A stretch of DNA of 32,000 nucleotides, taken from positions 660,001 through 692,000 of the forward strand of contig CP091279.1 in NCBI GenBank assembly GCA_021650915.1. The letters are read 5' to 3'. The notes under the pieces were generated by a model. The model was not told the origin of the DNA, searched no databases, and worked only from the letters and a program-made list of their open reading frames with translations. The translations under genes were made by a program, and so were the position numbers. Shown here piece after piece: positions 1-15,134 of the stretch. The DNA comes from Candidatus Brocadia sp. GTDB lineage: Bacteria > Planctomycetota > Brocadiia > Brocadiales > Brocadiaceae. The first letter of the stretch is position 1. The number at the start of each line of letters is the position of its first letter.

Positions 1-1552
1 CCATATCCAATAGTTCATAAATACCAATTCTGCCATGGTATCCAATGTCGTTGCAGTGTTTACAGCCTCTTCCCTTATAAAACGAGACATCTTTCACCTC
101 TTCTGCATCAAACCCCATTTTTGATAATTGATCATCGGTGTAGATAACCTGCTCTTTACACTGTGTGCAAATCTTTCTAACCAGACGTTGGGCCATAATG
201 CCTTGTAAAGAAGTGGCAACAAGAAAGGGTTTTATACCCATGTCAATCAGTCTTGTAATAGCAGATGGGGCATCATTGGTATGAAGCGTGCTCAGAACCA
301 GATGTCCTGTTAGAGCAGCTGCAATGGCAGTATCTGCCGTTTCTGTATCACGAATTTCTCCCACAAGGATGATATTCGGGTCTTGCCTGAGCATCGTTCT
401 TAAGATTGTCGGAAAATTAAAACCTATCTTCTCATTTACCTCACCCTGATTAACGCCAGGGAGGGTATACTCTACCGGGTCTTCTGCGGTAATAATCTTT
501 GTGTCAATTTTATTCAGTTCGTTAATGACAGCATACAGAGTTGTTGTTTTACCGCTGCCTGTAGGACCAGTAATCAGGAATATACCATTTGGTTTTTTAA
601 TAATGGAGTGAAAACGCTTGTCGTCATTTTCACAAAATCCCAGTTTTTTTAAGTCCAGCAAAATGACTGATTTTTCCAAGAGTCGCATAACAATGCTTTC
701 TCCATAAATGGATGGTAAGCACGATACTCGGATATCCATCTCTTTTCCTGCATGCTCCAGGCTGATACGGCCATCCTGTGGTCGTCTTTTTTCTGCAATA
801 TCAATGCTGGCGAGAATTTTAATTCTTGAAATGATTGGGTCCTGAAGATGTTTTGGGAGAACGTCTGACTCCTGGCATACCCCATCGATGCGGTATCGTA
901 TGCGTAATCTGTTTGAAAGTGGTTCCACATGAATATCGCTGGCACGGGATGAGGCTGCTTTATTGATAATCAGGGAAACGAGTTGAATAACGGGTCCGTC
1001 ATCTTCCGTAGCGTTTGCTTCCCTCTGGTATTTATCCCTCCGATCATCCTCTGCCTTAGGTATAGGTGACTCACGGAAGGCGAGTTCTTTCAGCAGGGTA
1101 TCAATCGTCTCTGAAGGTTGCTGGTCAAAATATTTGCGAATAGCATTTTTCAGATGCTCTGGTGTGGTAAGAACACATTTGATATCGGCATTGAGTCGAA
1201 AGCGCAGGTTGTCAATAAATCCAAGGTCTGGCGGACTGGTCACTGCAATGGTTATAGTGCCACTATTATTTGATATTGGTATGATACCGTATTTTCTTAT
1301 GAGTGATGCGGGCAATAGTGTTAGTATTTCAGGGGAAATGCTAACACTCTCTAAATCAATTACCGGTAAATTATAATGTATGGACAGACACCGAATAATT
1401 TCATGATATGTTGAATAGCCGAGGCTAACAAGGGCATCTTCCAACGGGATGTTTTCTGTTTTTTGAGTTTCTTTGGCTTTATCCATCTGTTCTTTGCTTA
1501 TGATACCGGCATTCAATAAAGCCTCTTCTCGTTGGTTCTGGGGAGTATTCAT
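1..1552 (-). CDS. Type II secretion / type IV pilus assembly ATPase (GspE/PilB family); the C-terminal end runs off the window
   Basis: Not in the ORF track because there is no stop in the window. Manual minus-strand translation from the ATG at 1552 gives MNTPQNQREEALLNAGIISKEQMDKAKE... Motifs seen: N-terminal T2SSE_N-like region, Walker A GPTGSGKTTT (about 551-580), Asp box/Walker B IILVGEIRD, His box GHLVLSTLHTND, and a tetracysteine CTQCK...CKHCN near the window edge. The track ORFs 649..945 and 1134..1376 lie inside this gene in other frames. Confidence 0.9.
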   Translation of the reverse strand, partial: MNTPQNQREEALLNAGIISKEQMDKAKETQKTENIPLEDALVSLGYSTYHEIIRCLSIHYNLPVIDLESVSISPEILTLLPASLIRKYGIIPISNNSGTITIAVTSPPDLGFIDNLRFRLNADIKCVLTTPEHLKNAIRKYFDQQPSETIDTLLKELAFRESPIPKAEDDRRDKYQREANATEDDGPVIQLVSLIINKAASSRASDIHVEPLSNRLRIRYRIDGVCQESDVLPKHLQDPIISRIKILASIDIAEKRRPQDGRISLEHAGKEMDIRVSCLPSIYGESIVMRLLEKSVILLDLKKLGFCENDDKRFHSIIKKPNGIFLITGPTGSGKTTTLYAVINELNKIDTKIITAEDPVEYTLPGVNQGEVNEKIGFNFPTILRTMLRQDPNIILVGEIRDTETADTAIAAALTGHLVLSTLHTNDAPSAITRLIDMGIKPFLVATSLQGIMAQRLVRKICTQCKEQVIYTDDQLSKMGFDAEEVKDVSFYKGRGCKHCNDIGYHGRIGIYELLDM

Positions 1553-11255: not shown

Positions 11256-12827
11256 GTGTTTACCACCAAAAAAGAGATTATCATGAGGATCAATAAGATT
11301 ATTTTCTCCAGTCTGGATATTCGCGAGGTTTACCAGACGATGAGCAACGAGCTCTTGAAAGTAATTGATTTTGACCGGTTGAGCGTTACCCTTATTACGG
11401 AAGATAATAATCTCTATGAAAACTTTGTTCTGTCAAAGGATTATGAACATACGGCGTTGAAAGAAGGGGTATTCTATCCTATGGAAGGAAGCCTAATGAA
11501 ACGCGTTGTGCAGTATCGTGAGCCGGTGATTGTCGATGATACGTCGAAGGGGCGGTTTCTTACTGATACGGTTTTGTTCAAAGAAGGAATTCGGTCACGG
11601 TTGGGTTTTCCCTTAGAATACAAGGGAAAGGTGATTGGAAGTGTAAATTTTGGCACCAAGCGGAAAGTCTATTATTCAAAGAAACATATCCATTTTTTCT
11701 CACAAATTGCCCCTCAACTGGCTATGGCAATTGAGAATACCCGTCTTTTTAACAAGATTAAAGAAGCGGAAAAAAAATACCGGGATATTATTGAAAGTTC
11801 GCCGGATATTATCTTTGAGTGTACGACTGAGGGAAAGTTTCTCCTGATGAGTGCTGCTCTAGAAAAGATTACGGGTTATCCGGCAGACCATTTTTATCAT
11901 AACCAGGGGTATGGTTTATCTCTTTGCCATAGCGACGATCGGGAACGGGTGCAGAATGAAATTCTTCAGCTCTTGCATGGGTTACGTGGCATTTTACTGG
12001 ACCTCGAATTTCGTGTGATTCACAAGCAAGGAATGGTTGTATGGTTATCGCTTGAAGCGCTTCCTCTTAAAGAAGGTAATACGATCGTTGGCATTGAGGG
12101 TTTTTGCCGCGATATCACCGAAAGAAAAAAATTGGAAGAATTAAAGGATAATCTGATTCGTGACGTTACTCATGAACTGAAGACACCCGTTGCCAAGATA
12201 GAGATGGCTGTAGATATGTTTGAACGTTCTCTTAACGCGGGGAATGAAGGCGTCTCCAAAAGAGGTTTTCAGGTGCATGAAATACTGAGAAATAATATCG
12301 GCCGTTTGAAGAATAGTATAAAAAACATCCTTGATATCTCCAAACTGGAATCAGGGACGGAACTCTTGAATGTGTCCCTTGTTTCTGTCGCCGATATGGT
12401 GAAACAGGTTATCAGCGAAATGACGGAGGCCGCTACTGTGAAAGGGGATGTTATCGTCAATCTTCTGTCGCCTGCTCTTCCCATGATAAGAGCAGATCGG
12501 GACAAAATATACCAGTTAATAGCACACCTGATCGATAATGCGATAAAATTTACCGAACAGGGAAAAATTAGTATATCGGCGCGGACATTCCCGGATGCAC
12601 TTGAGCTAACCGTAGAAGATACGGGCCGGGGATTGGATGAAGAAACAAAAAAGCGGGTATTTGAGAAGTTTTACAAGGAAACACCTTCGGCCTATGGGTC
12701 GGGGATTGGTCTTGCAATCTGCAAAAATATTGTGCAAATCCATAAGGGTAAAATTTGGGTAGAATCCAAGGGAAAAGGAATGGGATCGCAGTTTACTTTT
12801 ACCTTGCCGATAACTGGAGACCGTTAG
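11256..12827 (+). CDS. Cytoplasmic sensor histidine kinase (GAF + PAS + HisKA + HATPase_c)
   Basis: H-box VTHELKTPV, N-box DNAIKFT, G1 EDTGRGL, G2 GSGIGLAICK. No TM segments. GTG start 7 nt after the macro gene stop (alternative ATG at 11283). Confidence 0.85.
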   Translation: MFTTKKEIIMRINKIIFSSLDIREVYQTMSNELLKVIDFDRLSVTLITEDNNLYENFVLSKDYEHTALKEGVFYPMEGSLMKRVVQYREPVIVDDTSKGRFLTDTVLFKEGIRSRLGFPLEYKGKVIGSVNFGTKRKVYYSKKHIHFFSQIAPQLAMAIENTRLFNKIKEAEKKYRDIIESSPDIIFECTTEGKFLLMSAALEKITGYPADHFYHNQGYGLSLCHSDDRERVQNEILQLLHGLRGILLDLEFRVIHKQGMVVWLSLEALPLKEGNTIVGIEGFCRDITERKKLEELKDNLIRDVTHELKTPVAKIEMAVDMFERSLNAGNEGVSKRGFQVHEILRNNIGRLKNSIKNILDISKLESGTELLNVSLVSVADMVKQVISEMTEAATVKGDVIVNLLSPALPMIRADRDKIYQLIAHLIDNAIKFTEQGKISISARTFPDALELTVEDTGRGLDEETKKRVFEKFYKETPSAYGSGIGLAICKNIVQIHKGKIWVESKGKGMGSQFTFTLPITGDR

Positions 12828-12874
12828 TTATTTTTCACCTCGAACAATCTTCTTTAAGGAGTTGAAAAAGGATA

Positions 12875-13243
12875 ATGAAGACGATATTGATTATAGAAGA
12901 CGATCAGGAAATGCAGGAATTTTATAAGGATATGTTACAGGGGGAACAATTTACCGTAACTCTGGCCTCAAATGCAGATGAGGGTCTTAAGAAAGCAAAA
13001 GAAAAGAACTACGATTTGGTGATCCTCGATATCTTGATGGAAGGGGTTACGGGTGACCGGATCTTTGCCCTGCTGCGAAAAGACAGCAGGTATAGGAATG
13101 TTCCCGTCATTATGGCCTCTGCTCTTGATGAAAAAACCTATCGGTGTTTTCAAGCATTGGGAAATGTCTCTTTTCTTGAGAAACCGTTTAATAAGGGAAA
13201 GCTTTTCGCTGAGATAGCCAAGAGACTCCAACCGCTTAAATAA
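12875..13243 (+). CDS. Single-domain response regulator (CheY-like receiver)
   Basis: 122 aa with acidic pocket EDD, phospho-acceptor context LVILDILM, and a conserved Lys (EKPF). Confidence 0.85.
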   Translation: MKTILIIEDDQEMQEFYKDMLQGEQFTVTLASNADEGLKKAKEKNYDLVILDILMEGVTGDRIFALLRKDSRYRNVPVIMASALDEKTYRCFQALGNVSFLEKPFNKGKLFAEIAKRLQPLK

Positions 13244-13357: not shown

Positions 13358-13627
13358 TTAATAAGGTATTTGTATAAATTCTCCCGCGGAACTTCCATCG
13401 TTATTATACACGGTTGGCATGTAAAACGTATTTTCTGCGGCTTGATCTATCTTCTGGTTGCACCGCGGACAACGTCTGTTGTGTGGCCCGCGACTAATAA
13501 ATTTTTTGCCACACATGAGACAACTTCTTTCCGCCTTATCTGTGTAAACATTCTTTAGGGAAAGATTTTTTTCATTATACTTTCTCTGAGCTTTACGTTT
13601 TGATTTTTCTTTTTGTTGAACACTCAT
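13358..13627 (-). CDS. Small basic zinc-ribbon protein of unknown function (89 aa)
   Basis: AGGAG plus a 6-nt spacer before the ATG at 13627. Lys/Arg-rich N-terminus (QQKEKSKRKAQRKYNEK). Single C-x2-C-x13-C-x2-C ribbon (CLMCGKKFISRGPHNRRCPRCN). It has its own terminator and is preceded by the riboswitch leader. Confidence 0.7.
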   Translation of the reverse strand: MSVQQKEKSKRKAQRKYNEKNLSLKNVYTDKAERSCLMCGKKFISRGPHNRRCPRCNQKIDQAAENTFYMPTVYNNDGSSAGEFIQIPY

Positions 13628-13739
13628 GGTAAACTCCTGGATAGATTAAGATGTAATTTATAACTTTGCATAAAAAAACAAAACCAAAAAGAATATTGTT
13701 CCCAATATATTCATAAAAATTTTATCCACTATCATAAAT

Positions 13740-13860
13740 AAAAAAGCCTTACTGCAAAGATATTTTCTTGCATATCTTCGGCAGTAAGGCTGTCTTTATG
13801 ATTAAGACCCTTTACTTTGCGTCCCTTGGTTACCCAAGGTTTGCCTTTATCAGAATATGT
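13740..13860 (-). promoter_or_regulatory. c-di-GMP-I (GEMM-I) type riboswitch: aptamer (about 13779-13855) plus overlapping intrinsic terminator (13740-13793)
   Basis: The minus-strand RNA reads CUGAUAAAGGCAAACCUUGGGUAACCAAGGGACGCAAAGUAAAGGGUCUUAAUCAUAAAGACAGCCUUACUGCCGAAGAUAUGCAAGAAAAUAUCUUUGCAGUAAGGCUUUUUUAUUU. It shows the conserved GGCAAACC, a GNRA-capped hairpin, GGGACGCAAAG and a second hairpin. A long hairpin plus U-run follows. No ORF in the leader. Confidence 0.8.
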
Positions 13861-13886
13861 TTTATTGGATTACTAAAATATCCGCT

Positions 13887-13914
13887 ATTTTAATATTATA
13901 AAATTCTCTGTCAA
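13887..13914 (-). promoter_or_regulatory. Sigma70-like promoter driving the riboswitch leader
   Basis: Minus strand: TTGACA (13914-13909), 16 nt, TAAAAT (13892-13887). Predicted TSS near 13880. Confidence 0.55.
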
Positions 13915-14016
13915 GAAAAATTTCTTAAACAAACAAACTACTCTAACTTTGTTGAATAAAGGGAGTTAGTAATTAAATTGTATAGGAATTTCCATTTTAT
14001 TTATGCGGATTTGCGG

Positions 14017-14105
14017 TAGGGTGGATTAAGCGAGAGCGAATCCACCTTTCCTGTAAATAGTGTTGGTGGATTCGGCGTAAAAACCAACGCCTTGATCCAC
14101 CCTAC
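14017..14105. repeat. REP/BIME-like pair of inverted palindromic units
   Basis: Unit 1 is GTAGGGTGGATTAAGCGAGAGCGAATCCACC (14017-14046). Unit 2, inverted, is GGTGGATTCGGCGTAAAAACCAACGCCTTGATCCACCCTAC (14065-14105). Each unit is a hairpin, and the outer GTAGGGTGGAT/ATCCACCCTAC can also pair. Confidence 0.6.
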
Positions 14106-14202
14106 TCATAACTGGATTCTCTTCGGTGCTCACCTCCGATCCACTGTTTTTTTAATCTTCGTGAGACACGAAAGAATTTGTGATAGCAAAAAACGTTTTT
14201 CC

Positions 14203-14265: not shown

Positions 14266-14343
<78 letters not shown>

Positions 14344-14501: not shown

Positions 14502-14789
14502 TTATTTCTTTGATTTCTTAGATTTTCCCGTTTTCTTGACTGCAGGTTTTTTGGGTATTTGTAAGGGCGATGGACGGCAAAGCATTTCCCGTTTTGCCGC
14601 AAGCCGCCCGCATGAATCGCAAATGTACTTTAAATTGACCAGCTTGGGAGAACATACATGCCGAGGATCACCAGTTGTCGTTCCGCAGTATTTACAGGCA
14701 ACAACCTTTTTTGCGGGAATTGGATTACAAAGATGACCTTTTTCTTCCATGACCAAGCCGCACGTCTTGCAGGTATAGATATTTGCCAT
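14502..14789 (-). CDS. Small Cys/His-rich protein with three tandem CxxCG-x8-[H/M]xCxP repeats and a Lys-rich tail (95 aa)
   Basis: The true start is probably the ATG at 14789 (MANIYTCKTCG...), preceded by GGGAGG (14801-14796) with a 6-nt spacer. The track ORF to 14924 is an upstream over-extension. The repeat structure is visible by eye. Confidence 0.65.
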   Translation of the reverse strand: MANIYTCKTCGLVMEEKGHLCNPIPAKKVVACKYCGTTTGDPRHVCSPKLVNLKYICDSCGRLAAKREMLCRPSPLQIPKKPAVKKTGKSKKSKK

Positions 14790-15134
14790 ACAGTACCTCC
14801 CATCTATCCATTTTGTCTCTGATTTCGTTTGTATAAAGAGATTGTATTTTTCTTCATCTTTTCCGAAAAACATCTCTAAAAAAAGAAATTGCCCCTTACT
14901 CTCTCCTTTCTTTAAAAATGTCAAACCAAATCTGTTGTTAAGCTACACCAGGACGCTCTCCCTCTTTATTGTATTGTTTTTTCGTGTACTCCAATTGCCT
15001 AATCGTGATTTTTACTCCGGTACTAAACGGTTCCCGAATTTTTCTGCAGATTGGCATTGATTGAAATGCCACGATGATGGCTTTGTACTCTGACAGGCAT
15101 GCTTACCTTGTATTTTCGCTACTGATTATCTAAG

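Follow-up and report, generated by a model that had tools for sequence, protein, structure and literature searches.

The minus strand of a 32,000-nucleotide (nt) stretch of a Candidatus Brocadia genome (contig CP091279.1, positions 660,001 to 692,000; this whole stretch is referred to below as the window) carries an aptamer of the class-I riboswitch family for cyclic di-guanosine monophosphate (c-di-GMP-I, GEMM-I), which shares nucleotides with an intrinsic terminator and lies upstream of a gene for an 89-residue zinc-ribbon protein. This element is likely to be a canonical class-I c-di-GMP riboswitch operating as a transcriptional ON switch, in view of its match to a structurally characterised family, the nucleotides at the positions of the ligand pocket, the terminator, its overlap with the aptamer and the conservation of the whole arrangement in related genomes.

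Aptamer and overlapping terminator

Direct reading of the minus strand of 14100-13500 revealed a leader with the block GGCAAACC, a hairpin CCUUGG-GUAA-CCAAGG, the block GGGACGCAAAG, a second hairpin and a long hairpin ending in six uridines. A preliminary description of the window, made from its letters alone, had assigned the first four of these blocks to a c-di-GMP-I aptamer, for which it expected a minus-strand match to the Rfam model RF01051 and proposed the c-di-GMP-II model as a negative control; all four blocks are present on that strand where they had been placed. With gathering thresholds applied, a search of the entire window against Rfam 15 returned one riboswitch, at 13854-13776(-), with RF03167 ('c-di-GMP-I-GGC') as the best family (71.5 bits, gathering score 59, E = 2.9e-15), which is a full-length covariance-model match far beyond chance. 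Exactly one more member of the same clan scored above its own gathering score beneath this match and was masked by clan competition. To expose it, only positions 13786-13875 were rescanned, which leaves off the final 10 nt of the aptamer; RF03167 then fell under its threshold, and the expected RF01051 match appeared at 13786-13855(-) with 56.1 bits (gathering score 35, E = 3.8e-11), a score obtained with those 10 nt withheld. A permissive Rfam scan of 13600-14000 gave nothing else credible, and the negative control behaved as foreseen, with no match to the c-di-GMP-II model (RF01786) at E <= 10.

In one respect the preliminary description was mistaken: it had closed the core by pairing UGCC onto GGCA, whereas the family structure joins G13844-C13843 to G13820-C13819, the 3' nucleotides G13782 and C13781 are unpaired members of the pocket, and C13780-G13779 pair with the 5' leader. 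C13821, within GAC, and G13790, within the AG bulge, are both invariant in the 14 aligned sequences and form the counterpart of the interhelical C-G pair described as universal in GEMM RNAs (PMC4744006). Minimum-free-energy folds of the isolated aptamer domain extend P1 outwards by a further helix (Table 1), which by eye reads ACAU/AUGU in three of the related loci considered below (L013, L016 and L030) and whose 3' partner sits within the 5' arm of the terminator.

The terminator hairpin, GCCUUACUGCCGAAGAUAU...AUAUCUUUGCAGUAAGGC followed by U6, comprises 19 pairs with one bulged C and an 8-nt loop, and folds on its own with -26.3 kcal/mol. It was missed by a simple terminator scanner, whose pattern does not allow for such a loop and bulge, or for a stem of this length. 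Its 5' arm is assembled from the 3' side of hairpin 2, G13782 and C13781 of the pocket, the 3' side of P1 and most of the 3' side of outer P1, so that positions 13791-13772 overlap the aptamer segment 13796-13776, in keeping with the earlier proposal that a long hairpin with U6 re-uses the nucleotides closing the aptamer. Because the arm is built from the 3' strands of the aptamer, aptamer and terminator cannot coexist. The leader 13886-13730, folded as RNA, reaches -49.5 kcal/mol (z = -6.1, with 0/200 shuffled sequences as stable), and in this minimum-free-energy fold the terminator and aptamer hairpin 1 are formed, hairpin 2 and P1 are not. With the terminator as the unliganded fold and the aptamer excluding it, ligand should prevent termination; the ON polarity is thus deduced from mutually exclusive pairing.

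The leader is preceded by the promoter TTGACA-16-TAAAAT, located on the minus strand exactly as the preliminary description had claimed. It is kept as TTGACA-N16-TA(A/C/G)AAT, with a variable spacer, in 14/14 Brocadia-lineage loci (the window and 13 relatives), and in all of these its hexamers lie 65-85 nt upstream of the AAGGCAAACC block. The predicted transcription start falls near 13881-13879. In the proposed mechanism, transcription would begin near 13880 from this dedicated sigma-70-type promoter. Without ligand, the 19-bp terminator at 13791-13740 would form and the polymerase would stop at U6, leaving a transcript of ~140 nt; c-di-GMP lodged in a pocket of the G20/A47/C92 type would hold the shared strands in the aptamer, the terminator could then not nucleate, and read-through would reach the zinc-ribbon gene.

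Table 1. Positions of the features of the riboswitch locus in the window.
Feature	Position	Strand	Basis or remark
Sigma-70-type promoter, TTGACA-16-TAAAAT	13887..13914	(-)	11/12 consensus positions matched
Outer P1 extension, 5' strand CAUAU	13855..13859	(-)	pairs with AUAUG 13775-13771
c-di-GMP-I (GEMM-I) aptamer	13776..13854	(-)	covariance-model match
G equivalent to Vc2 G20	13845	(-)	model position 10 in RF03167 alignment; invariant in 14 sequences
Aptamer G-C/C-G pairs	13844-13843 with 13820-13819	(-)	family structure
Aptamer hairpin 1, CCUUGG-GUAA-CCAAGG	13839-13834 with 13829-13824, cap GUAA 13833-13830	(-)	
A equivalent to Vc2 A47	13818	(-)	G in RF03167 'GGC' consensus (model position 37)
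Aptamer hairpin 2	13816-13804 with 13796-13783	(-)	
C equivalent to Vc2 C92	13781	(-)	model position 75; invariant in 14 sequences
Intrinsic terminator	13740..13791	(-)	5' arm 13791-13772, 3' arm 13763-13745, U6 tract 13745-13740
GGAAC-N17-TGTT motif	13677..13702	(-)	between U tract and ribosome-binding site
Shine-Dalgarno AGGAG, 6 nt upstream of ATG	13634..13638	(-)	read from sequence; kept in related loci
Putative regulated gene, 89-residue CxxC-X14-CxxC zinc-ribbon protein	13358..13627	(-)	open reading frame list; 113 nt past U tract

Conservation and a second promoter-like motif

The identical 89-residue product is encoded in several Candidatus Brocadia assemblies, which are 99.3-99.97% identical to the window over alignments of 3.6-6.3 kb. 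Beyond these, a scan of species-representative genomes yielded 34 loci encoding the protein, and all of them were scanned with Rfam. The aptamer lies upstream of the gene in 13 loci (L007-L014, L016, L026, L027, L030 and L032), among them every Brocadia-named locus, and these scans found none upstream of the gene in Jettenia, Kuenenia, Loosdrechtia or other Brocadiaceae; in most of the aptamer-less loci a divergent tRNA-Pro gene lies only ~170-250 nt upstream. Since the aptamer is confined to the Brocadia lineage and the gene is conserved across the family, the module is apparently either a gain in that lineage or a loss elsewhere, ahead of a family-wide gene. The flanks of the 13 related loci are only ~79-86% identical to the window, and the module is in every one of them sense-oriented and directly upstream of the same gene.

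A pattern scan of metagenomes added only one locus, L041, a groundwater metagenome contig that carries the same aptamer and terminator module as a 5' leader at ~945-1082 (-). Its hairpin 1 shows compensatory changes (CCCCGA-GCAA-UCGGGG). A tandem aptamer further upstream was considered for this contig and rejected, only one aptamer being found. The downstream open reading frame, which runs towards position 1 of the contig, encodes a signal-peptide protein of YISYYD/LMYATN/TTVD repeats, typical of the surface proteins that are often placed under c-di-GMP riboswitches. With L041 included, 15/15 loci have a terminator-type hairpin (-20 to -26 kcal/mol) with a U tract behind it. The 14-sequence alignment has 95% of the aptamer cells paired, with three pairs changed on both sides, all in hairpin 1; for the terminator, 95.9% of the cells are paired and one pair is doubly changed.

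Several observations weigh against the assignment to a functional class-I riboswitch controlling this gene. Most pairs are invariant in so narrow a lineage and covariation is weak, with 26 to 68 of 500 shuffles reaching the observed values, and the statistics stayed weak because the metagenomes contributed a single extra locus. Covariation within the lineage is consistent with the structure and not independently decisive, so that the structural support comes from the resemblance to a family whose structure is known. P1 proper, too, is weak, consisting of U·G, U·G and G-C with 71% of its cells paired. Hairpin 2 is without the tetraloop-receptor segment of the RF01051 consensus (CUAAgg…cuAuG, mostly deleted in the alignment of the window). 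The receptor is common, not universal, in the c-di-GMP-I family, and members without a GAAA tetraloop often do without it. The tip of this hairpin is hypervariable among Brocadia species, ranging from a 7-nt loop in the window (13797-13803) to inserted hairpins of ~45 nt (L013, L014, L016 and L026), and other Brocadia loci carry unrelated insertions where the receptor segment would be. Finally, the conserved promoter-like motif GGAAC-N17-TGTT downstream of the terminator may allow expression of the gene without the riboswitch.

This motif recurs as GGAAC-N16-18-TGTT 75-97 nt upstream of the gene in 34/35 Brocadiaceae loci, with or without the riboswitch; its ends are invariant and its spacer is freely variable. 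The consensus for sigma factors of the extracytoplasmic function (ECF) group used here has GGAAC at -35 and a -10 element of the GTT or CGT type, ~16-18 nt apart, and by this resemblance the motif is probably an ancestral ECF-sigma-type second promoter of the gene. Because it is conserved and lies past the terminator, the riboswitch may control only one of two inputs, with the motif probably acting as the independent one. Two other candidates were discarded. A sigma-54 reading of the same letters (TGGAAC…TTG) has a GG-to-GC/GT spacing of 9 nt, where the canonical GG-to-GC spacing is 10 nt, and the ECF-type pattern fits better. The promoter-like TTTGCA-16-TATGAT at 13758-13731 (-), which matches at 9/12 positions and overlaps the 3' arm of the terminator, has a -10 element that is not conserved and is probably due to chance.

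Carried further, the same motif could be held to drive the gene on its own, the upstream unit mostly giving a short terminated RNA of little regulatory effect, be it a c-di-GMP sink, a small RNA or an attenuated relic. We consider this unlikely: each of 13 divergent Brocadia-lineage loci retains an intact promoter, aptamer and terminator together with their overlap, in sense orientation and ahead of the same gene, and L041 carries the same module as a 5' leader, even though the terminator is strong and all genera, with or without the riboswitch, have kept the proximal motif. The riboswitch-less loci looked at also speak for a self-sufficient proximal promoter, as no other sigma-70-like promoter was found upstream in them; in L020 and L029 none lies close upstream of the gene, and the only same-strand match, in L020, adjoins the tRNA gene.

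Ligand pocket, variant label and proposed direction of the switch

In the Vc2 aptamer the ligand is contacted by G20, A47 and C92, of which G20 touches one guanine and C92 forms a Watson-Crick pair with the second (PMC4744006). Model alignment places G13845 at the position of G20, invariant in 14 sequences, and thereby upholds the hand alignment of the preliminary description, which had put a G there. The aptamer shares its fold with GEMM-Ib, and some G20 aptamers are reported to be promiscuous, so that 3'3'-cyclic GMP-AMP (3'3'-cGAMP), or both cyclic dinucleotides, might be thought to be sensed; with G instead of A at the selectivity position, without exception in the alignment, this seems improbable. 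The cGAMP class consists of rare variants with a changed pocket nucleotide (PMC7266159; PMC9481103).

Among Rfam families RF03167 scores best not in the window alone but also in 12 related loci (L007-L014, L026, L027, L030 and L032) and in L041, and the element could on that ground be taken for a true c-di-GMP-I-GGC variant, with a changed pocket that may serve a ligand different from c-di-GMP. The consensus sequences of the two models, GGGACGCGAAg in RF03167 and gGACGCAAAg in RF01051, differ within the conserved core solely by G versus A directly 3' of GGGACGC, and the window reads GGGACGCAAAG there. From this comparison we take 'GGC' to denote the pocket positions 20/47/92. The variant-defining G is A in the window and in 14/14 relatives, namely the 13 homologous Brocadia-lineage aptamers and L041, and in L016 the two models score nearly equally (57.5 bits for RF01051 and 58.0 bits for RF03167). 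Because A13818 is canonical and the scores in L016 are so close, the higher score of RF03167 seems to stem from general likeness to a narrow seed alignment and not from a variant pocket. By alignment, the pocket is of the canonical G20/A47/C92 kind and lacks the defining GGC change; a true variant is accordingly very improbable, the RF03167 label is misleading here, and canonical class I is the better call. It follows for annotation practice that the RF03167 gathering score lets in aptamers with a canonical pocket, and that automatic annotation would mislabel the Brocadia lineage as the variant class.

Class-I c-di-GMP riboswitches of both polarities are known. Bc1 has a complex expression platform (PMC11218506). 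An OFF switch or a translational switch is hardly to be expected here, given that the stabilised aptamer excludes the terminator, that a separate anti-terminator element is neither needed nor visible, and that the ribosome-binding site lies ~100 nt past the terminator with no pairing to the aptamer seen.

Putative target gene, surroundings and comparison with known systems

The gene beyond the terminator, which the preliminary description had called an uncharacterised mini-protein, indeed encodes a product without known family: Pfam and NCBIfam gave no family above cut-off and only sub-threshold zinc-ribbon matches. A Foldseek search of the PDB had YacG as its best match at E = 0.8 and none at E <= 0.001, and the AlphaFold model, with a mean predicted local distance difference test score (pLDDT) of 65, is confident only in the zinc ribbon and one helix. 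All source-named members among 25 close homologues come from Brocadiaceae or unclassified Planctomycetota. A profile search extended this set to 343 cluster representatives at E <= 0.001, of ~55-140 residues, which share CLMCGKxFxSxGxxNRRCxxC…YY.P.VY and of which some have an extra N-terminal Cys-rich domain; ten members scanned against Pfam gave none above the family cut-off for the motif. Judged by the shared residues, the 89-residue protein belongs to a wider uncharacterised family of small proteins. A 25-residue open reading frame at 13735-13658 was rejected as an alternative target, because by eye the frame in which the conserved nucleotides are read is not the same in the window, L007, L008 and L013.

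None of the 26 open reading frames scanned in the window (at least 89 residues, likely genes) matched a GGDEF, EAL or PilZ domain, in agreement with the preliminary description. The neighbours on the opposite strand are a GAF-PAS-HisKA-HATPase histidine kinase and a stand-alone receiver response regulator (11256-13243 (+)). Both genes read towards the 3' end of the zinc-ribbon gene, an arrangement that is kept in six near-identical assemblies. On the other side, the 99.3-99.97%-identical assemblies lose synteny just upstream of the riboswitch locus, at ~14075-14120 beside tRNA-Pro (14266-14343 (+)); past this point L003 runs into mreB/mreC and L006 into a porin gene, which suggests a rearrangement or an assembly breakpoint beside the tRNA gene. 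Further upstream, 14502-14924 (-) holds a 140-residue Cys-rich open reading frame with several CxxC/CNP motifs and a lysine-rich tail, for which no family passed its threshold; the related assemblies that keep this flank (L001, L002, L004 and L005) have a gene call of 95-140 residues there.

Apart from its host, its apparent gain in one lineage ahead of a gene with a probable second promoter, and its misleading Rfam label, the element is an ordinary class-I c-di-GMP riboswitch of the textbook type, within reach of standard pipelines. A full-text literature search found no report of a c-di-GMP riboswitch in anammox bacteria. In anammox bacteria c-di-GMP correlates with granulation; extracellular polymer production and aggregation are correlated with its level in granular sludge (review PMC11224092). 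Anammox bacteria are available neither in pure culture nor for genetic manipulation, and a riboswitch offers a direct target of c-di-GMP that can be read from sequence; this one marks the 89-residue zinc-ribbon protein as a candidate member of the regulon, and the module in the related contig does so for a secreted repeat protein. It is a tentative and rather doubtful extension that Brocadia gained the promoter-riboswitch-terminator module ahead of a gene already equipped with an ECF-type promoter, and that the resulting OR-type two-input control ties the zinc-ribbon protein to the life in aggregated granules that c-di-GMP governs; on this reading the protein would be a new downstream effector of c-di-GMP signalling.

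Compared with known systems, the aptamer agrees with Vc2 and RF01051 in the two-hairpin fold, the GNRA-capped first hairpin, the GGCAAACC…GGGACGCAAAG core, the pocket and the interhelical C-G pair, and differs from them in its short second hairpin with a 7-nt loop and no tetraloop-receptor segment, in a GUAA instead of a GAAA tetraloop, in its anammox planctomycete host and in its uncharacterised zinc-ribbon target. To RF03167, its top-scoring model, it is similar overall in helix lengths and in the sequence of the second hairpin, but the G that the variant has 3' of GGGACGC is A here and in all relatives. GEMM-Ib (c-AMP-GMP) aptamers use the same scaffold and carry A at the position of Vc2 G20. 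The aptamer described here has G at position 20, the pocket nucleotide that is changed in GEMM-Ib (PMC9481103). In its expression platform the element resembles Bc2, which precedes cap in Bacillus thuringiensis BMB171 and was shown by experiment to be a c-di-GMP-I ON switch acting through anti-termination (PMC4933901): in both, a class-I aptamer is followed by an intrinsic terminator and ligand favours read-through, with a logic of repression and de-repression. The mechanism is experimental for Bc2, whose target is a collagen adhesin, and predicted in Brocadia, where the aptamer itself would act as the anti-terminator by sharing strands with the terminator.

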